64,000 nt of DNA, from positions 1 to 64,000 of the IMG/VR virus record IMGVR_UViG_3300013121_000020; one strand, written 5' to 3'. Below, piece after piece: positions 7,280-63,001 of the stretch. A program made the translations under genes and the position numbers. The notes under the pieces are model-generated. The model searched no databases, had not been told where the DNA came from, and saw only the letters and a list, made by a program, of their open reading frames with translations. Source of the DNA: a virus (Duplodnaviria > Caudoviricetes). Position 1 is the first letter of the stretch. Each line of letters begins with the position of its first letter.

Positions 7280-7652
7280 TGATAAATTTATGGTTGCTTT
7301 TGCAGAAGAGGTTAAATTTCATCTTAATATGTTGAATGAGTCTAAATATAAATTATTTTTAAGACGGGAAAATTGTGACCCACGTCTTAAAAATATACAA
7401 TCGTTACCGATCCCTGGTATAATAGATAATATGTTATTGTTGGAGACAGAAATACCTCTTGATTATGAGATTTATGTTGAAATTAAGGGTTCAATAATTT
7501 ATATACAGAAATATATCAAATTTGATTTAAATGATCCAAATTCAATTGATGATATGAAATTGTTATTTAATGATTTATCAAAATTAAATGCTTTATATAG
7601 TACATGTCGAACTTTGTGTTGTAAAAACACTTATCGCGCATTGTTGGGTTGA
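7272..7652 (+). CDS. Hypothetical protein
   Basis: Overlapping operonic ORF. Confidence 0.5.
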   Translation: MIDDKFMVAFAEEVKFHLNMLNESKYKLFLRRENCDPRLKNIQSLPIPGIIDNMLLLETEIPLDYEIYVEIKGSIIYIQKYIKFDLNDPNSIDDMKLLFNDLSKLNALYSTCRTLCCKNTYRALLG

Positions 7653-7663
7653 GGAGTTTGTGT

Positions 7664-9103
7664 ATGATTAATGACGGTGTTGTGCCACAATATGATCCAT
7701 CCATGTATACTGGTCCATCTCATTTTGTGCATTTACATAATCATACACTTTTTAGTATGTTAGATGGTGTTGCGTCACCGGAACAATATGCTGAGCAATG
7801 CGCAAAACGTGGTTATCCGGCCATGAGTGCGACAGAACATGGTCATATGGCAAGTGTTCCAGATATGTATCTAGCTTTTAAGAAAGCAAAGGTGAAATAT
7901 ATTGCCGGTTGTGAAATATATTATAATGATTGGGAACCGAAGAGACATGAGCTTGAATCAAATGGGATTAAGGTTAGGTCTCCTGAATGGAGAAGGAACA
8001 ATCCAGAGCTTGCATATCGGATTGTTCGAAATAGACACTTAACTATTTTGTGTAAGAATCAAATTGGATTTCAGAATTTAGTAAAATTGACCACTCAAGC
8101 ATATGAGAGTGGTTTGTTTGGTGTATCACAGCGGCAATTTAATAGAATATGGTTTGAAAAATTATGTGAGTTTAAAGAAGGTTTGATTATATTGTCAGGA
8201 TGTCTCAATGGTCCAGTATGCCATGAACTTCGTTTTCGCCAGTTGAAAGATCGTGAAGGCAATGTAATAATGGAGCGTGATAAAAAACAATGTTTGATTG
8301 AGGCTGTTCGATATATTAAGAAATTCAAGTCAGTGTTTGGCGACGATTATTACATCGAATTGCAAATGCCCGGTGTTGAAGATGATGAATGGGTGTTTAG
8401 AACTTTAATTATGTTGGCTGACCAATATAAAATTAAGACTGTCTTAGCGAATGATTGTCATTATTTAAGACGTGATGACTTTCAAATTCAAAAAATTATG
8501 ATGGCTATTGCTCAAGAAACGACTGTTGATAGTCCAGATTTGTTTCACGTGAATTCAGATGAACAATATATGAAGACTCGTGCTGAATTATGGGCACGTT
8601 TTAAAAATTGTGGATATTCTAATGGTATTGATGATAGAAAATTTGAAGAAATGTGCGATAATTCATTGATGGTTGCAGAACGGTGTAAGTCGTTAGATTT
8701 TGATCCAGACCCTAAAATTCCACAAATTAAGAATGCTGATGAACAACTATGGGAGCTTGTAAATACTAGATTAAAAGAAACTAGACTTGGCCTTGATACT
8801 ACTAAGTATATTATAGATGGTCGTGCTGTGACATATGTTGAGCAGGCTAAAATTGAATTGAAACGATTCATTGATAAGGGTTTTGCTAGTTATTTTTTGA
8901 TTACTAGAGATCTTATTAATTATGGGCGTCAGCAGGGTTGGCCATTTTCTCCAAGAGGGTCAGCTGGCGGGTCGTTGGTTTGTTTTTTATTGGGTATCCA
9001 CGTTCTTAATCCAATGTTGTGGGGTTTGTCTTTTGATCGTTTTTTATCCCCATCTCGTGGTGGATATATGTTGAATTTGAATATGGGAGAGGAAAAGAAA
9101 TGA
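7664..9103 (+). CDS. dnaE: DNA polymerase III alpha, fragment 1: PHP domain plus start of palm (GS motif)
   Basis: FVHLHNHTLFSMLDG, ATEHGHM, GCEIY, HLTIL, LSGCLNG, NDCHY, GFASYFL, RGSAGGSLVCFLLGI, LSFDRFLSPSR, then stop; GAGGAG RBS before ATG 7664. Confidence 0.9.
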   Translation: MINDGVVPQYDPSMYTGPSHFVHLHNHTLFSMLDGVASPEQYAEQCAKRGYPAMSATEHGHMASVPDMYLAFKKAKVKYIAGCEIYYNDWEPKRHELESNGIKVRSPEWRRNNPELAYRIVRNRHLTILCKNQIGFQNLVKLTTQAYESGLFGVSQRQFNRIWFEKLCEFKEGLIILSGCLNGPVCHELRFRQLKDREGNVIMERDKKQCLIEAVRYIKKFKSVFGDDYYIELQMPGVEDDEWVFRTLIMLADQYKIKTVLANDCHYLRRDDFQIQKIMMAIAQETTVDSPDLFHVNSDEQYMKTRAELWARFKNCGYSNGIDDRKFEEMCDNSLMVAERCKSLDFDPDPKIPQIKNADEQLWELVNTRLKETRLGLDTTKYIIDGRAVTYVEQAKIELKRFIDKGFASYFLITRDLINYGRQQGWPFSPRGSAGGSLVCFLLGIHVLNPMLWGLSFDRFLSPSRGGYMLNLNMGEEKK

Positions 9104-19124: not shown

Positions 19125-21188
19125 ATGGAACGCGATATTAGTTGGGATACTGTAGTGAACGCTGCAATCCATAATTTGACAACTCGTGGTCTTGGACATG
19201 AATATCATGAAAGATTAAAGTTTGAGATTTCTGAAGTGGAAAAGCAAGGTGCTGAAACAATATGGATTAATAGATATCGCGATAATAAGAAATTTGTATC
19301 AAATCCAAATAATTTGGTATTGCCGTGGGTTCTTGGGATGGTAGATGACGACCCGCTTGCAGTTAGAAAGACGCCAATTTTAAATGTGGTGCGTGCTTCG
19401 AAAATTGCAGCATTTAAAAACGCTCATGGAGTAATTCCACACGATTTTATCAAAGATTCTGACAGTCCTGATATTGATATAGATTGTCTTCCAGCGGCTC
19501 GCGATCCGCTAAAACAATACGCCATAGCTCAATATGGTAGTGATTTTAATGATGGTTATGGGTCAGTATGCTCGGTTGGTACATGGCAGACGTATAAACT
19601 AAAACAAGCGTTAGTTGATGCAGCAATAGCTCTTGGATTTATTTCTGGCTATCGTGGGAAGGGTGGTAAAGGGAAAAAAGCATCAGACGATGAAATCCCA
19701 TCATATTCAACCAAATTAATGAATCGATATGAATTTGAACAGACATATAATGCAAAACTCCCAGACGATGTTGATGAGCTAAGAGATAATGGGAGGGCTG
19801 TGTGTAAAGGCAAGATTATTGTGAATGGAGAAGAAAAAGATTGTGGGAACATGCACGCTGGAATTGTGTGTGAGAAATGTGGATCAACTGAAACCGATGT
19901 ACCAACAATTGCTCAATTGATCAAGGAACATCCAATTCTGCAAGAATTACAATTGAAATTTCCAGCTGGTCAGCTTGCGAATGGTACAAACCATCCATCA
20001 TTAATAGACGCTGCGGTTGCTCTGATCGGCCGCGTTCGTAATATGGGAATGCACGCTGGAGCCATCATTATTACCGATAGGCCATTATATGGAAATGTGC
20101 CGTTAGCAAAGTCTGGAAGAACTGGTTATTGGATTAGTATGTGGACAGAAGGACGTAATACTCAACTATCTAAATTTGGATATATTAAATGGGATTGGTT
20201 GGGTCTCAAAACTCTTGAATATATCTTTAGATGTTGTAAGTTAATTGAAGAGAATCGGGGTATTTCGTTTGGTATAAATATGAGTGGGTGGGATGATATA
20301 AATCCATTAGAACGTCGTGCTGGTCACTACTTTGATGGTGAAGGGAACAAACATTTTATTAATTTAGATGACCCACACGCTATTAGACTTGCTAATGAAC
20401 AAAAAACAGACGGTGTGTTTCAATTTGATACGGAGCTAGCAAAATCAATTCTTGCAAATGGTGTGCGATGTTTTGAAGATTTATTGTTTTTTAATGCGAT
20501 GGGCCACCCTGGACCAATGCAATCAATTCCAGAAGCGGTTAAGAATCGCGATGACAAACATGAAACTTGGAAACGAAGATTGCATGATATTCATCCAATT
20601 CTTCTTGAAATTTTACAAAGCACTTACGGTGTTATTTGTTGGCAAGAGCAGCTGGCAGCTATTTGGCAACGTTTAGGAGGGTTCACGTCACCTGAAGCGC
20701 AAGAAGCTCGTAAAGCGGTGGCGAAAAAGTGGGTGCATAAATTAAAACCGATTGGTGATAAATGGATTGATGGTGCCACAAAAACAATTGGTAAAGCAAA
20801 TGCTGAAACGCTTTGGGAAAAGATGGTAACATTTGGTAGGTATGCATTTAACAAATGCCTAGATAAGGACACAGTTTTACGTGATTGTGTTACAGGTGAA
20901 GAATTATCGATTGAACAATGGTCTAAATTAGAACATAAACCAGTTATGCTGTCAGTTGTCGATGGTGTGACAGTTGAGGATGAATGCATAGCAATTCATG
21001 ATACTGGTTTGCAAGAAATATTTGAAATTACATTTGATAACGGTCAAACAGAGCGAGTCACAATTTTTCATAAGTTTTTGTGTTCTGATGGTCAATATCA
21101 CGAAGTGCGAGAAATTATTGATAAAGGATTGGATGTTGTCGAAGTTTTGCCTGTTGAAACAATAAAACGAGAGGGCGAAAGTGATTAG
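19125..21188 (+). CDS. dnaE: DNA polymerase III alpha, fragment 2: catalytic palm/thumb/fingers, ending in a split-intein N-half
   Basis: SPDIDIDC, GMHAGAIII, KWDWLGLKTL, GVFQFDT, HPGPMQ, TYGVICWQEQL, FGRYAFNK|CLDKDT. Confidence 0.92.
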   Translation: MERDISWDTVVNAAIHNLTTRGLGHEYHERLKFEISEVEKQGAETIWINRYRDNKKFVSNPNNLVLPWVLGMVDDDPLAVRKTPILNVVRASKIAAFKNAHGVIPHDFIKDSDSPDIDIDCLPAARDPLKQYAIAQYGSDFNDGYGSVCSVGTWQTYKLKQALVDAAIALGFISGYRGKGGKGKKASDDEIPSYSTKLMNRYEFEQTYNAKLPDDVDELRDNGRAVCKGKIIVNGEEKDCGNMHAGIVCEKCGSTETDVPTIAQLIKEHPILQELQLKFPAGQLANGTNHPSLIDAAVALIGRVRNMGMHAGAIIITDRPLYGNVPLAKSGRTGYWISMWTEGRNTQLSKFGYIKWDWLGLKTLEYIFRCCKLIEENRGISFGINMSGWDDINPLERRAGHYFDGEGNKHFINLDDPHAIRLANEQKTDGVFQFDTELAKSILANGVRCFEDLLFFNAMGHPGPMQSIPEAVKNRDDKHETWKRRLHDIHPILLEILQSTYGVICWQEQLAAIWQRLGGFTSPEAQEARKAVAKKWVHKLKPIGDKWIDGATKTIGKANAETLWEKMVTFGRYAFNKCLDKDTVLRDCVTGEELSIEQWSKLEHKPVMLSVVDGVTVEDECIAIHDTGLQEIFEITFDNGQTERVTIFHKFLCSDGQYHEVREIIDKGLDVVEVLPVETIKREGESD
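20856..21185 (+). other. Split intein, N-terminal half (IntN, 110 aa)
   Basis: Begins with Cys1 (CLDKDT); HDTGLQEIFEITFDNG; block B RVTIFHKFL (TxxH); acidic C-terminal part; no endonuclease domain; resembles the cyanobacterial DnaE IntN layout. Confidence 0.9.
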
Positions 21189-21432
21189 TGAACAAGACCT
21201 TGAACGGCTGAAAGAACATTTGGTTGGGACTGGCCGCACACTTAATCAGGCATTGGAGTGTTTAGAAATTGAGTGCGATTTAAGCGATATCGAAGATCAG
21301 TTGCTTGATGTGTCGCTAGAATTGTGTCCAGCGTGCGGCTGGTGGGTTGAGTCTAGTGAGATGGAAGAACAAGATGTAGATGTTTACGTCTGTTCTGAGT
21401 GTTTTGATGGAGATGATGAAGACGATGAGTGA
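21181..21432 (+). CDS. Small acidic zinc-ribbon protein
   Basis: CPACGWW...CSEC; D/E-rich. Confidence 0.6.
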   Translation: MISEQDLERLKEHLVGTGRTLNQALECLEIECDLSDIEDQLLDVSLELCPACGWWVESSEMEEQDVDVYVCSECFDGDDEDDE

Positions 21433-21688
21433 GAAAAGAACTGTCACTATTTAAAAGTTGCTAAAATAATGCAATCAATTGATCTATGTGGTGGGTTTCT
21501 TGATCGTGAACAAACAATTCCATGTCCGCGCACAGAATGGAGTAAGATTGGCGAGACACACAAGCAGTATATTGGTGAAATGATTATTGAATCGTGGTAT
21601 TATTGGAGATGTAAAACGTGTGGGAAAATTAAAGGCACTAAATTTAGTGAGCGAGAACGATGAGTGATAAAAGAACTGTCACGATCTA
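21422..21688 (+). repeat. 32-bp direct repeat (21422-21453 and 21657-21688, 3 mismatches) flanking ORF 21469-21663
   Basis: acgatgagtgaKaaaagaactgtcacKatYta. Confidence 0.8.
21469..21663 (+). CDS. Small hypothetical protein (Cys motif)
   Basis: 64-aa ORF, WRCKTCG. Confidence 0.5.
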   Translation: MQSIDLCGGFLDREQTIPCPRTEWSKIGETHKQYIGEMIIESWYYWRCKTCGKIKGTKFSERER

Positions 21689-22115
21689 CGGTCGAAGCAA
21701 TGGTTTTGTTTGTGTTGATGGTGATGTTGTTGGGTGTGACGAATACGAAGCATTTGACAAGATAAAGTTCATTGAATTTCCAAACGGGCTGGCGTTTAAA
21801 GTTGAACGACCTTACGGTACATGGAGAGTTGTTCAAGTGCAGATTGGCGGCAGCACATATGATGGCACCATTATTACAAAGGCAATTGATGATTGTTCGG
21901 AGAGAATCACTGTTGAAGGCGAGTTTGATTATATCAATGTGTGGGACAATCTTCCACCAACCGACCATGAGATGCGGTTAATAATAGGTCATGATTTTGC
22001 TGATTGGGGTGCGTTTAATCGTAATCATCAACTGAATCGCGATGATCTATATACAATTATTAGAATTATTCGGGAGACGAAGTTAAGGCAAAAAGGTCAA
22101 CGTGTCGAGAGTTAA
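21660..22115 (+). CDS. Hypothetical protein
   Basis: ATGA overlap; 151 aa. Confidence 0.55.
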   Translation: MSDKRTVTIYGRSNGFVCVDGDVVGCDEYEAFDKIKFIEFPNGLAFKVERPYGTWRVVQVQIGGSTYDGTIITKAIDDCSERITVEGEFDYINVWDNLPPTDHEMRLIIGHDFADWGAFNRNHQLNRDDLYTIIRIIRETKLRQKGQRVES

Positions 22116-22118
22116 ACG

Positions 22119-22343
22119 ATGCAAGGTATGAAAGCATATTTACTGTCCGTTCATATTCAATATCAGGATAGTAAAGAGAATTTTGAGCGTTTTTACTATA
22201 CGCTTTTTGAAGCTGTTAAGGACGCATCAAAATATCTTGCAGATTTAAGTATGATAGTTCGTGTTGTATTATATGAAATCGAGATTGGTAAGTGCATTTC
22301 CACCATGTATTCAGGAGATTCGGTTGAAATCGTTGGAGAATAA
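22119..22343 (+). CDS. Hypothetical protein
   Basis: Packed small ORF. Confidence 0.45.
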   Translation: MQGMKAYLLSVHIQYQDSKENFERFYYTLFEAVKDASKYLADLSMIVRVVLYEIEIGKCISTMYSGDSVEIVGE

Positions 22344-22577
22344 GTGATGGCTCGTATGAAGTGGAAGCGAAATAGTAAGAATAATGATCAACATAGCGAA
22401 TGTGGCCGTTTTATTATTCGTGCTTTTTGTGTGAACCCCAAATGGTGGGGTTATTGGGGGCTTACTGTGGTTCAAACAGGTCAAGAATTTCCGTGCAGGA
22501 CTGAGAAGTCCGCCAAAGTTGCTGCAAAAAATATATCTGCGACGATGGCGACTTCGCCGCTGGAGCAAACGCTGTGA
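22344..22577 (+). CDS. Hypothetical protein
   Basis: GGAG RBS, packed small ORF. Confidence 0.45.
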   Translation: MMARMKWKRNSKNNDQHSECGRFIIRAFCVNPKWWGYWGLTVVQTGQEFPCRTEKSAKVAAKNISATMATSPLEQTL

Positions 22578-23332
22578 CAGATGATATTATAGCCGGGCTT
22601 CGCACTACTATCAACAACGACGCTGAATATCTTAGACCAGTAATTGATCGCATGATTGAATTGGCTGATACGTTTAGCGATGCTGAACGGAATATGGTAT
22701 TACGTCAATCTGAGATGTTGCGATGGATGATGTTGAATGTCGAACGAGTAGACTCGGCTAGCGCACTGCGGATGTGGTGTGAATTTCCTAATCATGATGC
22801 GATGCGATTGGTGAGTTCGCCAAGCCCGCTCCGCACTGACGATATTTATAAGTTGATTGATGAGTTGTTTCCAGATACTGAAGTTGGATGGCGGTCTGGT
22901 GGTTATGTTATTCCTGTAACTTTTGTGGCGTGGGTTGGAGGGAACTGTACTAATTGTTCTGGTAGAGGATTGGTTGAAGATATCGATTCCTATCGATCTA
23001 CATGTCGCTGTTCTGAATGTGACGGCTCTGGTTGGATCAATGCTATAGGTCCACGTGCGGTACTTACTGCACCAATCAGGCGATTAATGTTGAAAGATGT
23101 TGGTTCCTTGGTGCGACATGATGGTTTGTACGAGCCATTTTTACCACGAGGTTTTCGCACCAAGGCCCCATGTGGAATCGATGAGGCAATAAGGGTTCGC
23201 GGTGAATTTTTGGCATATCAGACTGCCGAAGCCGCTCGCACAGCCGTGGAGACCGCAACGTTAAATTGGGCGAGATTTAAGGTTGGAATGCAACATGATA
23301 TTGAAGGCCGACCCGCGTGTGGAGGGAAGTGA
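22574..23332 (+). CDS. Hypothetical protein with DnaJ-like CxxCxGxG pair; possibly divergent TIGR02996-like N-terminus
   Basis: CTNCSGRG...CSECDGSG. Confidence 0.55.
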   Translation: MTDDIIAGLRTTINNDAEYLRPVIDRMIELADTFSDAERNMVLRQSEMLRWMMLNVERVDSASALRMWCEFPNHDAMRLVSSPSPLRTDDIYKLIDELFPDTEVGWRSGGYVIPVTFVAWVGGNCTNCSGRGLVEDIDSYRSTCRCSECDGSGWINAIGPRAVLTAPIRRLMLKDVGSLVRHDGLYEPFLPRGFRTKAPCGIDEAIRVRGEFLAYQTAEAARTAVETATLNWARFKVGMQHDIEGRPACGGK

Positions 23333-23333
23333 G

Positions 23334-23579
23334 ATGGCCGAACCGTTATATAGTGTTGGAACGTGGGACGCAGAACTGCAAGAGTACACGGAGCAGATTG
23401 GGCTAACTGTTCCAAGCCAGAACGTTCCGCTTGGCGGCGTGCTGGCTGTATTGAGGCAACTCCGAGCAATAGGCTACTCATGTCATTATCGCCGGGATGC
23501 GAGCGGATCGCACAACGACAATGATTATGCGGTTCTTGTAGAGCGAACCGATGGCAAGCCACTCGATGGGAAGCGTTGA
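23334..23579 (+). CDS. Hypothetical protein
   Basis: GGAGG RBS before ATG 23334. Confidence 0.55.
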   Translation: MAEPLYSVGTWDAELQEYTEQIGLTVPSQNVPLGGVLAVLRQLRAIGYSCHYRRDASGSHNDNDYAVLVERTDGKPLDGKR

Positions 23580-23875
23580 TGTCTGATTTCTATCAATCGC
23601 ACCTTGATGAGTTCGCCGATGATGCAGCGGCGCGGTTGTTGTTTGGTGAGTACCTTGCCGAACGCGGTGACTCGGATGCGGCTGGATATTTATGGATGGC
23701 GAAGCGGGCGAAGCGGCCTCTTTATAATATGTGGTTTTTCGACGACGACTCGATCCCATCGGCAGTCGGTTTGAGTATGCGTGATGCTTTTGATGGGCAG
23801 TCTGAGGCGATGTACCCCACCTGCCGTGCCGCAGAACTCGCGTTGTGTCGGGCGGTGAGCGGGACGCAGGAATGA
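23576..23875 (+). CDS. TIGR02996 (repeat-companion) domain-like protein
   Basis: FYQSHLDEFADDAAARLLFGEYLAERGD resembles the P.DD..RL.YADWL.E.GD pattern. Confidence 0.6.
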   Translation: MMSDFYQSHLDEFADDAAARLLFGEYLAERGDSDAAGYLWMAKRAKRPLYNMWFFDDDSIPSAVGLSMRDAFDGQSEAMYPTCRAAELALCRAVSGTQE

Positions 23876-23922
23876 AGCGGTAAAATGAGTGAAATGAGAC
23901 AACCTTTAGCAGTGAGATTTAG

Positions 23923-24483
23923 ATGCATGATCCTATGACTGTGGTGTTCACTATTCCGAACCCGTTTGCCAGTCGTTATACTTGGGCCAAAACGTGGTGG
24001 AAGCGACCATCACTTATTACAATTTGGCACGTTGACCCGGAGCGTGATGGCAATGACGACTCATGTGGTCGTGATTACCAGTTCAAGAAACTGACACCGC
24101 AAGAGAAAGCTATCGCTGACGCGATATGGGACGGCGAAACGATCTTCGATAACCGCCCACACTACCCTAATTCGCCTGAACACAGGTGGTTCAAGACACT
24201 CAAGCGGGCGTGGCTTGAACATCGCCAACAACACACATTTTGGCGTGTGGCTCCGCGATGGCATATATGGCATTGGCGTATACAGATTCACCCGCTTGAG
24301 TCGCTGCGTCGGCGGTTATTGACGCGGTGTGAGTCGTGTGGCAAGCGGCTTGGTACATCGCCAGCAATTGCCGTTGGTTGGGATTCGCCGCCACGTCGAT
24401 GGTTTGAATTGTTTCGTGGACAGCGCGGGCTGATGCACGAAGAATGTGCGAGAGAGCAAACACAAGCCGGTAAACAAACCTGA
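23923..24483 (+). CDS. Trp-rich hypothetical protein
   Basis: ITIWHVDPERDG.DDSCG; PRWHIWHWRIQIHP; CESCG. Confidence 0.6.
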   Translation: MHDPMTVVFTIPNPFASRYTWAKTWWKRPSLITIWHVDPERDGNDDSCGRDYQFKKLTPQEKAIADAIWDGETIFDNRPHYPNSPEHRWFKTLKRAWLEHRQQHTFWRVAPRWHIWHWRIQIHPLESLRRRLLTRCESCGKRLGTSPAIAVGWDSPPRRWFELFRGQRGLMHEECAREQTQAGKQT

Positions 24484-24499
24484 TAAAAGGAGAATTTTG

Positions 24500-24781
24500 A
24501 TGTTGTATTTGAAAGCTGGAAATCTGCATTTGGTGATTTTGGAAACACCAAACCTAGACTCTATCAAAGCCGGTCGGCCAGCAAAGACACCCGATGGAGA
24601 AGTCTTGATTGCATGGACTCCTGATCCTGTATGGCTTGCAGATAAGATTATCGATACTGGTGGTGACGTAATGAAAATCGCCAAATTGATAGACGAGGCG
24701 GCAAAGCGACCACAAAAGCCGGTGGATAGGCCAAAGCACCCAGAGCATACGGTGCGTTTTGAAGAGGAAAAAGATGCTTAA
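24500..24781 (+). CDS. Hypothetical protein
   Basis: AAGGAG RBS before ATG 24500. Confidence 0.55.
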   Translation: MLYLKAGNLHLVILETPNLDSIKAGRPAKTPDGEVLIAWTPDPVWLADKIIDTGGDVMKIAKLIDEAAKRPQKPVDRPKHPEHTVRFEEEKDA

Positions 24782-24845
24782 GCGACTACGCAATAATTTG
24801 TTGTATTTTTAATGCTGACCACTATCGCACGTTGTGAGTTAATGA

Positions 24846-24956
24846 ATGAAAATTATAGCTTGTCGTTCGCTTGGTGTTCGTCAAACTTATTCTCCAGAGA
24901 TGAAATCAAGCCAGCACAATTATATAACTGCACAATCGTCAGCTGTTCATCGTAAT
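24846..24956 (+). other. Split intein, C-terminal half (IntC, 37 aa)
   Basis: MKIIACRSLGVRQTYSPEMKSSQHNYITAQSSAVHRN; terminal Asn followed by Ser+1; basic. Confidence 0.88.
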
Positions 24957-26060
24957 TCACATGGTGTTAGTTATTGTCTTGTTGCTCATCGCTGTTTGTG
25001 GTTAAAAGCTCATTTTGCTCCAGAATGGTGGGCGTCTGTGATGAGCGATTGCCATCCGGACAAACTTGTTAGATATATGGGTGTAGCACGTTCTGAGGAG
25101 TGGATTCCAACTGATATTACATATTCTGGAAAGCGTGTAGATGATAAAACAACTGGTGTGAAATTTGGCCCAACTAATATTGAAAACTTAACTGTCGATT
25201 TTACAGTTACTGGTAATGTGGTTAATCAAGGATTGATTGGTATAAAGGGGATTGGTGATAAAGCTGCTGCTATATTCCAAGGAAAGGGTAAGTATCGTAA
25301 TATAGATGAATTTGTTCAATCAGCTGAAGGGAGGCAATCAAAGACGGTAATTGAACGGTTTATTAAACTTGGGGCGTTTCGCCATATTCATCCAAATTCT
25401 AAAGCGTTATGGGAGTGGTATCAGTATAAGTATTGTAAGTCTGGACAAAAAATGACGAAATTGAGAAATGATATTCGTAGTAAGTTATTAGAACGTGAAG
25501 AATGGACACCACAGAAAATTAAGGATGAAATTGCACGAAAAATTGCTGCATATAAGGATAAATTTCCAAAACGAAATAAAATCCCATCATCGATAACGAA
25601 TTGGAAACCAAAGCCAGAAGATAGTCGAGAACGTGTAATGGCTTTGTATGAAGATGATTTTACGATTGAAGAAAAATTAGAGTTTCAAAAACAATTTTTA
25701 GGTTATTGGATAGATTCACCACTTGATGTATATCAATGTTCTGGGCGATGTACTATTGCAAACGCAAAAGACACTGCCAAGCATGGTAATGGTGATGTTG
25801 TTATTGAGGGTATTATTGTTGATGTTGAAGAGGGAATGACAAAAAACAATAAACCATATTTGAAAATATTTATAACAGATGGTATTCAGAGAGCATTGAT
25901 ATTTGTTTGGTCTAATGAGTTAAGATTTCAAGATTTCTCTGTTATTCAACCCGGTGTTGGTGTGTCGATGGTTGTTGATTATGATGATAAACGCGGTACA
26001 TTTAGTTTAGGTCGTAATGAATCGGTTCAAAAACTTATGTTGCGTTCGGAGATGTCATAA
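24846..26060 (+). CDS. dnaE: DNA polymerase III alpha, fragment 3: split-intein C-half, then fingers end, HhH and OB-fold
   Basis: AVHRN|SHGVSYCLVAHRCLWLKAHFAPEWWASVM; GLIGIKGIGDKAA; QKQFLGYWI; OB-fold EGIIVDV..TKNNKPYLKIFITDG. Confidence 0.9.
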   Translation: MKIIACRSLGVRQTYSPEMKSSQHNYITAQSSAVHRNSHGVSYCLVAHRCLWLKAHFAPEWWASVMSDCHPDKLVRYMGVARSEEWIPTDITYSGKRVDDKTTGVKFGPTNIENLTVDFTVTGNVVNQGLIGIKGIGDKAAAIFQGKGKYRNIDEFVQSAEGRQSKTVIERFIKLGAFRHIHPNSKALWEWYQYKYCKSGQKMTKLRNDIRSKLLEREEWTPQKIKDEIARKIAAYKDKFPKRNKIPSSITNWKPKPEDSRERVMALYEDDFTIEEKLEFQKQFLGYWIDSPLDVYQCSGRCTIANAKDTAKHGNGDVVIEGIIVDVEEGMTKNNKPYLKIFITDGIQRALIFVWSNELRFQDFSVIQPGVGVSMVVDYDDKRGTFSLGRNESVQKLMLRSEMS

Positions 26061-61056: not shown

Positions 61057-61593
61057 ATGGCACGATTTATTCCGTTTACCGTTTATGTAAGTGTTGTTCC
61101 AAGACAAGGTTATGGTAAACGTTTTGAACAAATTCGCGATATTCAAAAATTGTCTATATTAATATATGATGAAATATTATCAATCTCTGGTATACAAGTA
61201 GCACTCCCTGGTGGTGGACAATCATCACAATTGTCAGATATTAACCGTCGAGGTGGTCTTGGCGGATATGCTAATGGTACTGCAGTTAAATTGCAGATGG
61301 GAGAATCGCCAGCACAATTGGCATTAACTGGATTTTATGAAGTTAATGAAGCTAATTCACAACCGTGGAACGATTATCAACTAATATCTGGAGGTGAAAC
61401 ATTAACTGGTCCGGGACCACATCCGTGCGATGCGGTTCCGATAACTTCTTTTAATACGAATGTAAAATCTCTAAAAAATAGTTTCGAGTCAGCGATTACC
61501 GCAGCATTGCCAGCATCAATTGTGTGGAAAATTTTTAGAATTGATTTTGGTGGTGCTATATATGGTGATAGAGGCTTTCATTTTCCTAGATGA
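61057..61593 (+). CDS. Hypothetical protein, likely structural
   Basis: GGAGG RBS. Confidence 0.6.
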   Translation: MARFIPFTVYVSVVPRQGYGKRFEQIRDIQKLSILIYDEILSISGIQVALPGGGQSSQLSDINRRGGLGGYANGTAVKLQMGESPAQLALTGFYEVNEANSQPWNDYQLISGGETLTGPGPHPCDAVPITSFNTNVKSLKNSFESAITAALPASIVWKIFRIDFGGAIYGDRGFHFPR

Positions 61594-63001
61594 TCAATTC
61601 AAGTTTTAAATGCCCTGCATCCCACATTCGCCGATAGCCGTTGTTAAACATGTTTTGTGCTTCGGTTAACAACGGATCGAAGGTTGCAAGAGTGTTGCCT
61701 AATTTATGTTTTTGACATTGTTGTCTTGATATAGTTTTTAATCCTTTACAATAAAAATATCCTGGTCTGGTTATTTTTCTTTCTATAAATCCGATAGCTC
61801 GATATCCAGTTGCATTTGTGTATCTTAGGTCAGCATATGTTATGATTTTTGATGGGTTGATAGTCTTAATAAAATGATTAAATAATTTTGACACTCCACC
61901 ACGCACGTTATAACCAATTTTAGTTGCCATACGTATTAGTTCATAACCTTCTTTATGCGGATTCCATGACGCTGCCATAACAATTTCATCATTGTCCATT
62001 AAACAAACGTTATACTTCGCATGGCGACCACTTTGCAGATGGTTGTGTTCATAAAAGGTAAATGGGCATATATCAGTTTGTATTTTAAAGGAACGTGCGT
62101 GTAATCTTTTTGATTTATGTTGGCGATTTTTGATTATTGATTCTACGATTTTAGTTTTATATACCCATTCATGTTCATAGAATTGTAAAAGTTGTATACC
62201 AACTTTTTGTGATAAAATCCATTTTGTTTGATGATACAGTCGCTCTTGAGTTGTCTCTATTCTATTAAATGAATGCCAAAACATACCATGGTATTCCACA
62301 CCTAATTTTAATTCTTTATCATAAACATCAATTTCGAATGGTGGTATGATGTTTCTAGAATTGATTATTGGATTATTAAATAGAGTTGATATATCATTGT
62401 GACCTTGTGATAAATTGCAATATGGACAGCCTGAGCCTCTAATATGGTTACTTGGTGTTTGTTGAAATATTTTATTGCACGTGTTGCATATAATATCAAT
62501 ATCTTTGAAATACGATGCATATACTACTTTTGAATAATTGAATCTATTATTGTGGCGATTTTTTGCTTTTTCAATAAATGAGATTGTTATTTCTTGCAGC
62601 TTGTTTTGCCAATGATTTTTTAAGCATTGTGATAATTTTTTCTTCCTTGATATTGTCATCGACTTTTTTATTCCTTTAATAATTAGTTCTCTGTTTTTAC
62701 GCCAGTTCAATTTTGATGATTCTGATAATTGTTGTTTTCTCTGTGATTGAATGATTTTCATTTTTTCGCTTTGTGCCTGTCGATGTTCATTGTTTGCCCA
62801 GTATGTTGATGAATATGATGAGATATATGATGATCTTTTTCTCATTCCTTCAGATATTGAACTGCGATTTATTTTGTGTTTCTTTATCCAATATCGAACA
62901 CTTGCTGGTTTTATACCTTCACGATTTGCTAATTCTCTAATTGAGCAAATCTCCAATTGGGTGATTAACCAGTCTCGATTATGGAAATCGCTAATGGCCA
63001 T
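61586..63001 (-). CDS. Free-standing homing-endonuclease-like protein (Hef-like PD-(D/E)xK) with HTH, NUMOD-like basic repeats and zinc ribbon
   Basis: YSKVVY..CNTC..F.QTPSNH..GCPYC; EIDVY..GVEYHGMFWHS; ELIRMA..RGGVSKL..TYADLR; RMWDAG. Confidence 0.75.
   Translation of the reverse strand: MAISDFHNRDWLITQLEICSIRELANREGIKPASVRYWIKKHKINRSSISEGMRKRSSYISSYSSTYWANNEHRQAQSEKMKIIQSQRKQQLSESSKLNWRKNRELIIKGIKKSMTISRKKKLSQCLKNHWQNKLQEITISFIEKAKNRHNNRFNYSKVVYASYFKDIDIICNTCNKIFQQTPSNHIRGSGCPYCNLSQGHNDISTLFNNPIINSRNIIPPFEIDVYDKELKLGVEYHGMFWHSFNRIETTQERLYHQTKWILSQKVGIQLLQFYEHEWVYKTKIVESIIKNRQHKSKRLHARSFKIQTDICPFTFYEHNHLQSGRHAKYNVCLMDNDEIVMAASWNPHKEGYELIRMATKIGYNVRGGVSKLFNHFIKTINPSKIITYADLRYTNATGYRAIGFIERKITRPGYFYCKGLKTISRQQCQKHKLGNTLATFDPLLTEAQNMFNNGYRRMWDAGHLKLELII

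Follow-up and report, generated by a model that had tools for sequence, protein, structure and literature searches.

A probable split mini-intein at the FNK↓SH site of a DnaE polymerase encoded in three pieces by an uncultured jumbo phage

When a phage carries the gene for the α-subunit of DNA polymerase III (Pol III α; DnaE) in several pieces, the question arises of how a whole polymerase is obtained from them. The case considered here lies in the window, i.e. the whole stretch of 64 000 nucleotides that was analysed, which is the first 64 kb of the 354,091-bp virus record IMGVR_UViG_3300013121_000020 (completeness estimated at 98% by CheckV). The virus is a giant (jumbo) uncultured phage of ~354 kb, and its bacterial-type DNA polymerase is encoded in three genes. 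A sequence-only reading of this locus had proposed that two of the gene products are joined by a naturally split mini-intein at an FNK↓SH motif (the arrow marks the insertion point), with serine as the first residue after the intein (Ser+1). Our analysis leads to the same answer with considerable confidence: the locus very probably encodes a functional, naturally split class 1 mini-intein that would rejoin two of the three DnaE gene products.

The N-terminal half of the intein (IntN) forms the end of a 687-residue open reading frame (ORF) at positions 19125–21188 on the plus strand. Residues 1–577 (19125–20855) are the N-extein, DnaE fragment 2, which comprises the rest of the palm and the fingers, ends in FGRYAFNK and matches the Pfam families DNA_pol3_finger (E 1e-28) and DNA_pol3_alpha (E 6e-16) as well as NCBIfam DnaE models (E 4e-54). 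Residues 578–687 (20856–21185; 110 residues) are IntN, which begins with CLDKDTVL, so that its first residue is Cys1, contains the block B sequence T69-x-x-H72 (TIFH), ends in an acidic tail and is followed directly by a stop codon (21186–21188). The C-terminal half (IntC) opens a second plus-strand ORF of 404 residues at 24846–26060; its 37 residues (24846–24956), which have their own ATG, contain block F as TYSPEM...HNY and block G as AVHRN, the last residue of which is the terminal Asn37. Ser+1 (24957–24959) is followed by SHGVSYCLVAHR into the HhH region of the C-extein. This C-extein, DnaE fragment 3 (24957–26060, plus strand, 367 residues), begins with SHGVSY and covers the end of the fingers, the HhH region and the OB region (Pfam HHH_6, E 6e-10; NCBIfam DnaE models). 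The coordinates and residues assigned to IntN, IntC and Ser+1 in the sequence-only reading are borne out by translation, as is the complementary charge of the two halves (net −16 for IntN and +4 for IntC, with family means of −13 and +2.7, respectively).

The exact position of the splice site is fixed by relatives that have no intein. A search with the C-terminal fragment gave 93 cluster representatives, about 57 of which begin with the same IntC (35–37 residues), and about 15 longer intein-less homologues run unbroken across the junction as FGRYAFN(K/R)↓SH(A/G)VSY. Among about 25 related phage loci in IMG/VR, six carry the split intein exactly at FNK↓SH and about 18 are continuous. Since the intein-less relatives are continuous at YAFNK-SHAVSY, removal of the segment from Cys1 to Asn37 would rebuild the FNKSH motif of the host exactly. 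The separate ORFs, the homology described below and the continuity of the intein-less relatives uphold both the proposed split mini-intein with Ser+1 and the proposed restoration of this conserved motif.

The homology of the two halves points to the DnaE inteins. In a phmmer search of the PDB, IntN matched the solved Npu and Ssp DnaE inteins with E values of 7e-8 to 1e-4 (about 38% identity over 63 residues), with DnaB inteins far behind (E 0.06), and a profile of six IntC sequences matched Npu IntC chains only (E 0.08). The alignments of the NCBIfam models for the N and C proteins of the cyanobacterial split DnaE extend through the two intein halves. A search of the whole genome with the Pfam model Intein_splicing, which is too weak to detect the present intein, gave no further intein at E ≤ 1. 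A library-wide phmmer search with IntN also found a contiguous counterpart, P0144, a 1092-residue member of the same phage DnaE family with a 140-residue mini-intein at the same site, carrying YSPEM in block F and ending in IHAN↓SH; its own contig was not found in viral or metagenome contigs. In the AlphaFold model of the whole P0144 protein (mean predicted local distance difference test score, pLDDT, of 79), residues 571–710 form a beta-rich insert. In Foldseek, the exteins match Pol III α structures and the best intein match of the insert is the Npu DnaE intein (PDB entry 4kl5; E 1e-5, template-modelling score 0.63), followed by other DnaE, DnaB and RecA inteins. The break between the two halves in the window falls on the short N–C linker of P0144 and on the end of the Npu IntN, which is the endonuclease-insertion loop.

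Conservation within the family shows which residues are retained. In 26 family sequences of IntN, which share the N-terminal motif CL(D/G/S)KDT, the residues C1, L2, T69, H72, C76 and D78 are invariant, and the IntC logo of the core family shows invariant G10, E18, M19, H24-N25-Y26, H35 and N37, followed by Ser+1. The junction Asn37↓Ser38 is found in all 48 IntC sequences. Position 4 of block F is Ser16 in 46 of the 48 and Cys in one homologue, Pro17 is present in 45, and the penultimate position 36 is Lys, Arg or Ala across the family. When the IntC profile is aligned with Npu, Ser16 falls on the block F Asp; in an alignment with the contiguous mini-inteins of the same site, Ser likewise takes the place of this Asp, and His35 stands one residue before the canonical penultimate His. 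The replacement of Asp by Ser and the non-His penultimate residue had been claimed beforehand and are confirmed by these two alignments; the replacement and the shift of the His are common to about 57 relatives. The distant members L019 and L021 read YNICM or YNLGM in block F and PIH(K/A)N in block G, i.e. Asn and Cys/Gly at the positions of Ser16 and Glu18, and thus these two residues are not universal within the wider group.

Whether the halves have to be rejoined depends on the role of the polymerase. No family-B polymerase was found in the genome, and PolA gave only a weak partial match; DnaE is therefore probably the replicase of the phage and must be made whole. DnaE fragment 1 (7649–9103, plus strand, 484 residues) comprises the PHP domain and the beginning of the palm (Pfam PHP, E 1e-34; DNA_pol3_alpha positions 16–98, E 1e-20). 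It is encoded 10 kb upstream of fragment 2 and has neither half of an intein, so that the joint between fragments 1 and 2 is without one. Intein-less splits of Pol III α are known in jumbo phages (Iyer et al., 2021; PMC7824862). Fragment 2 also contains a Cys-rich insertion at 19800–19900 of the window (residues ~225–255), with the pattern CxxxxxxxxxxxC...CxxC, which is likely to be a zinc ribbon. A cultured relative was not found in the phage collection, where the best tblastn identity was below 28%.

Turning to activity, the features of a class 1 intein are present: the nucleophile Cys1 in block A, Thr-x-x-His in block B, the His of block F (HNY) and a terminal Asn followed by Ser+1. Every nucleophile and block B are invariant, which argues for true splicing, and the locus thus probably encodes a real and active split intein. 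In the mechanism that we propose, the acidic IntN of the 687-residue protein and the basic IntC of the 404-residue protein would come together and form a single HINT domain; Cys1, aided by Thr69 and His72 of block B, would perform the N–S acyl shift, the hydroxyl group of Ser+1 would take over the N-extein, cyclization of Asn37 would release the intein and an O–N shift would form the Lys–Ser peptide bond of the rebuilt FNKSH finger motif. Splicing activity, and any part taken in it by Ser16, Glu18 or His35, is what we infer from the anatomy, homology, insertion site and family distribution observed here. Some observations weigh against this interpretation. Both residues that a review names as the usual helpers (PMC7765530), the Asp of block F and the penultimate His, are missing, these being usual rather than universal in class 1, and the intein segment of the P0144 model has a pLDDT of only ~60, which is too low for side-chain geometry.

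The absence of both helpers would fit halves that only hold two polymerase chains together, or that only cleave, leaving the enzyme as a non-covalent assembly such as that at the joint between fragments 1 and 2; indeed, the same polymerase tolerates an intein-less split between 7649–9103 and 19125 onwards. Because DnaE is the likely replicase, the split intein must work or its halves must at least associate. We nevertheless consider such an assembly unlikely. Dozens of clusters, with no more than 40–70% identity over the rest of the sequence, all retain Cys1, Thr69, His72, the His of block F, Asn37 and Ser+1, residues that a mere dimerization module would not need. An intein domain retained within the FNKSH motif of the fingers would also be likely to interfere with the active site. 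The unusual motifs could also be taken as a sign of non-canonical splicing, either with a nucleophile in block F, as in class 3, or with Glu18 and His35 in roles not seen in class 1 inteins: position 4 of block F is nearly always Ser and once Cys, and the core family shows no variation at Glu18 or His35. We hold this to be very improbable, since Cys1 is invariant, whereas class 3 inteins have no N-terminal nucleophile (PMC7765530), and the substitutions in L019 and L021 show that neither Ser16 nor Glu18 is an obligate nucleophile.

A gene that is in three pieces, has lost its endonuclease and carries foreign-looking GC-rich DNA in its gap might be suspected of being an assembly artefact or a dnaE that is decaying and non-functional. 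However, both ORFs are intact and free of frameshifts, independent contigs show the two-ORF arrangement again, and the genome, at an estimated completeness of 98%, yielded no other replicative polymerase; this explanation is scarcely credible. A functional class 1 split intein therefore remains by far the preferred explanation. Within it, we advance only tentatively the possibility that the jumbo-phage branch, with its motifs TY-S-P-E-M and V-H-x-N, is a distinct class 1 catalytic variant in which the Glu two residues past the Asp position and the shifted His act as helpers, and that it could provide Ser+1 split inteins that do not cross-react with those of Npu or gp41-1.

The gap between the halves (21189–24845; 3,657 nt) contains ten small plus-strand ORFs of 64–252 residues. 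These ORFs gave no functional match in Pfam, PHROG or NCBIfam and have no homologues near dnaE in the relatives. A 2.2-kb block at 22.6–24.8 kb has a guanine–cytosine (GC) content of 46–53%, compared with 34–39% in its flanks, and with its five ORFs it looks like recently acquired foreign DNA. A homing endonuclease is absent from 21189–24845, as judged from Pfam, PHROG and NCBIfam and from a search with the endonucleases of the relatives. A possible endonuclease remnant was considered and rejected: the only tblastn match (21043–21210), which was weak (E 0.003), corresponds to an alternative frame of conserved IntN DNA, and the 83-residue zinc-ribbon ORF that follows it gave no convincing alignment with the relatives' endonucleases. 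By contrast, four split relatives (L004, L009, L017 and L021) have a free-standing homing endonuclease between the halves: their gap of 1.3–1.6 kb contains one same-strand ORF of 445–572 residues that overlaps IntN at its end and IntC at its start and matches PHROG homing/HNH endonuclease families (E 5e-84 and 5e-79), with a weak Vsr match (E 0.02). The gap ORF of L021 has a Mom-like C-terminal domain, and that of L019 is broken. Elsewhere in the window, a free-standing ORF of the homing-endonuclease family (61586–63001, minus strand, 471 residues; PHROG 3339 and 559, E ~1e-71) is 35–38% identical to the between-halves endonuclease of the relatives, of which it is a paralogue; it lies here among unrelated genes.

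These observations suggest a history in which a free-standing homing endonuclease split the intein, remained between the halves in related phages and was lost in this phage, where ~3.7 kb of small genes would have taken its place. Loss of the endonuclease, followed by uncoupling and drifting apart of the halves, has been proposed for fractured genes (Dassa et al., 2009; PMC2677866). This model predicts both steps; the window appears to show the later stage, and it may serve as a clean natural example of it, with the splitting endonuclease lost and the gap filled with unrelated and partly compositionally foreign genes. The halves of an essential polymerase would here be en route to the fully unlinked state found in cyanobacteria.

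In a FastTree of the IntN region, read without support values, the phage inteins, split and contiguous, group apart from the cyanobacterial ones, and the contiguous forms P0144, P0121, P0212, P0218 and P0219 fall inside the phage clade. The different insertion point, the separate clade and the contiguous forms within it make it plausible that the split is independent of the cyanobacterial event and is shared by the whole phage family. The suggested independent origin thus stands as a plausible one with respect to cyanobacteria, although it is not particular to this phage, as dozens of jumbo-phage clusters share the split. Four of these contiguous inteins (P0121, P0212, P0218 and P0219), which are ~390–400 residues long and lie at FNK↓SH, share a conserved insert of ~250 residues (e.g. 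...SRW(V/L)YSRG..(I/L)CE(L/F)A...). The insert matches no Pfam family, is not similar to the Vsr-like endonuclease and is possibly an endonuclease domain of a kind not yet described.

The insertion site itself is common. When the 150 best cluster representatives were sorted by the residues before Cys1, 81 had ...Y(A/G)FN(K/R)↓, nearly all of them with IntN at the very end of the protein and therefore split, and the lengths of their host DnaE proteins varied widely; ten had the site FNKSH↓, two residues further downstream, and three, with lower scores, had the cyanobacterial type ...FAEY↓. A scan of GTDB for the exact pattern FNK-CLxGDT, with one genome per species, gave at least 120 loci, of which ~17 are estimated to occur by chance. 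At least 83 of these loci have a contiguous intein in the same ORF that ends ...VVHN↓SH and has a canonical TYDLxV block F, and both motifs are present in 76 of the 79 distinct tails among the GTDB matches listed. The hosts include cultured Deinococcus species, Gemmatimonas, Saccharibacteria, Chloroflexota and a Pleurocapsa, and two mini-inteins of Chloroflexota (TYNLTM...HNYLL...VSAN↓SH) are similar to the phage type. The finger domain is a published hot spot with several insertion points in Pol III α, the cyanobacterial one being split (Novikova et al., 2016; PMC4760082). Taken together with the many bacterial inteins at FNK↓SH, this makes the site and Ser+1 ordinary, and the phage branch is distinguished by its set of block F and G motifs.

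The neighbourhood of the site holds further inteins. Eight proteins (P0146, P0159, P0174, P0176, P0183, P0184, P0192 and P0195) carry related split and contiguous inteins after FNKSH or FNxAH, two residues downstream, so that three neighbouring insertion points of one motif (Y↓, K↓ and H↓) are used by related inteins. In the same finger region of DnaE, P0121 opens (residues 1–50) with the C-terminal half of another split intein (...IIVHN↓CIPDY), and a contiguous intein of the LAGLIDADG type is found upstream of FNK in P0108 and P0109.

The novelty attributed to this intein was accordingly overstated: FNK↓SH with Ser+1 is a standard DnaE site in many bacteria, split forms dominate the nearest relatives and the layout matches that of known fractured genes (Dassa et al., 2009; PMC2677866). 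Inteins of this type, and genes laid out in this way, have been on record since 2009 and occur commonly in metagenomes. The present case is not an isolated discovery, even though a literature search for the FNKSH motif together with 'intein' found nothing and other literature searches gave no description of the present phage intein. The C-terminal residues are truly atypical, but the missing penultimate His is not unusual in itself, as the Chloroflexota relatives end in VSAN. Nor can the suggested use in Cys-free ligation be maintained: Cys1 never varies, there are further cysteines in the halves, and a cysteine-less split intein requires Ser1 together with Ser/Thr+1 (PMC12707363). Protein engineers could draw on this family for dozens of natural split-intein pairs that combine Cys1 and Ser+1 with unusual blocks F and G and that might prove orthogonal to existing tools; this value is limited, since fast Ser+1 split inteins already exist and the present intein is not cysteine-free.

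Focusing finally on known systems, the present intein is a member of a large FNK↓SH DnaE clade, within which the jumbo-phage branch is marked by Ser (rarely Asn, Cys or Ala) at position 4 of block F, a nearly invariant Pro-Glu-Met after it and a His two residues before the terminal Asn. The contiguous bacterial DnaE inteins at FNK↓SH (Deinococcus spp., Gemmatimonas, Saccharibacteria and Chloroflexota, among others) share the identical insertion point and Ser+1, whereas they are mostly ~425 residues long with an endonuclease domain, have the canonical TYDLxV and VVHN motifs and are less similar to the present IntN than the split forms are. The fast Ser+1 split inteins gp41-1, NrdJ-1 and IMPDH-1, which have been characterized, use Cys1 and Ser+1 as the phage intein does, and both usual helpers, the Asp of block F and the penultimate His, are present in them; their host proteins are different, and they gave no detectable match to the present IntN in the PDB search. 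The IntC of Npu ends in IASN and that of Ssp in IAAN, i.e. without a penultimate His, and the absence of this residue is shared with the phage intein, as are an acidic IntN, a basic IntC and HN(F/Y) in block F. These cyanobacterial DnaE split inteins (PDB entries 1zd7, 2keq and 4kl5) are the nearest solved relatives and reside in the same host protein and finger-domain motif, whereas they retain the block F Asp, are encoded as halves at distant loci and form a separate clade in the IntN tree. As had been stated in the sequence-only reading, their site lies four residues upstream (...FAEY↓CL at the start of the intein, compared with ...GRYAFNK↓CL in the phage), and their +1 residue is Cys instead of Ser (Dassa et al., 2009; PMC2677866). 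The closest parallel in layout is provided by the fractured genes of the same study, from which gp41-1, NrdJ-1 and IMPDH-1, likewise phage-type fractured genes, also originate: three DnaE loci in phage-like environmental DNA from Global Ocean Sampling (GOS; DnaE-1, DnaE-2 and DnaE-3) carry split inteins at novel integration points, and the DnaE-2 locus also has a free-standing endonuclease that is Vsr-like (Dassa et al., 2009; PMC2677866). Likened by their described layout, as distinct from their exact junctions, these loci resemble that of the phage in having DnaE as the host, in an integration point other than the cyanobacterial one and in a break at the endonuclease-insertion loop, and the relatives of the phage keep a Vsr-like/homing-endonuclease ORF that overlaps the downstream start, whereas in this phage the endonuclease is gone and ten unrelated small ORFs stand between the halves instead.

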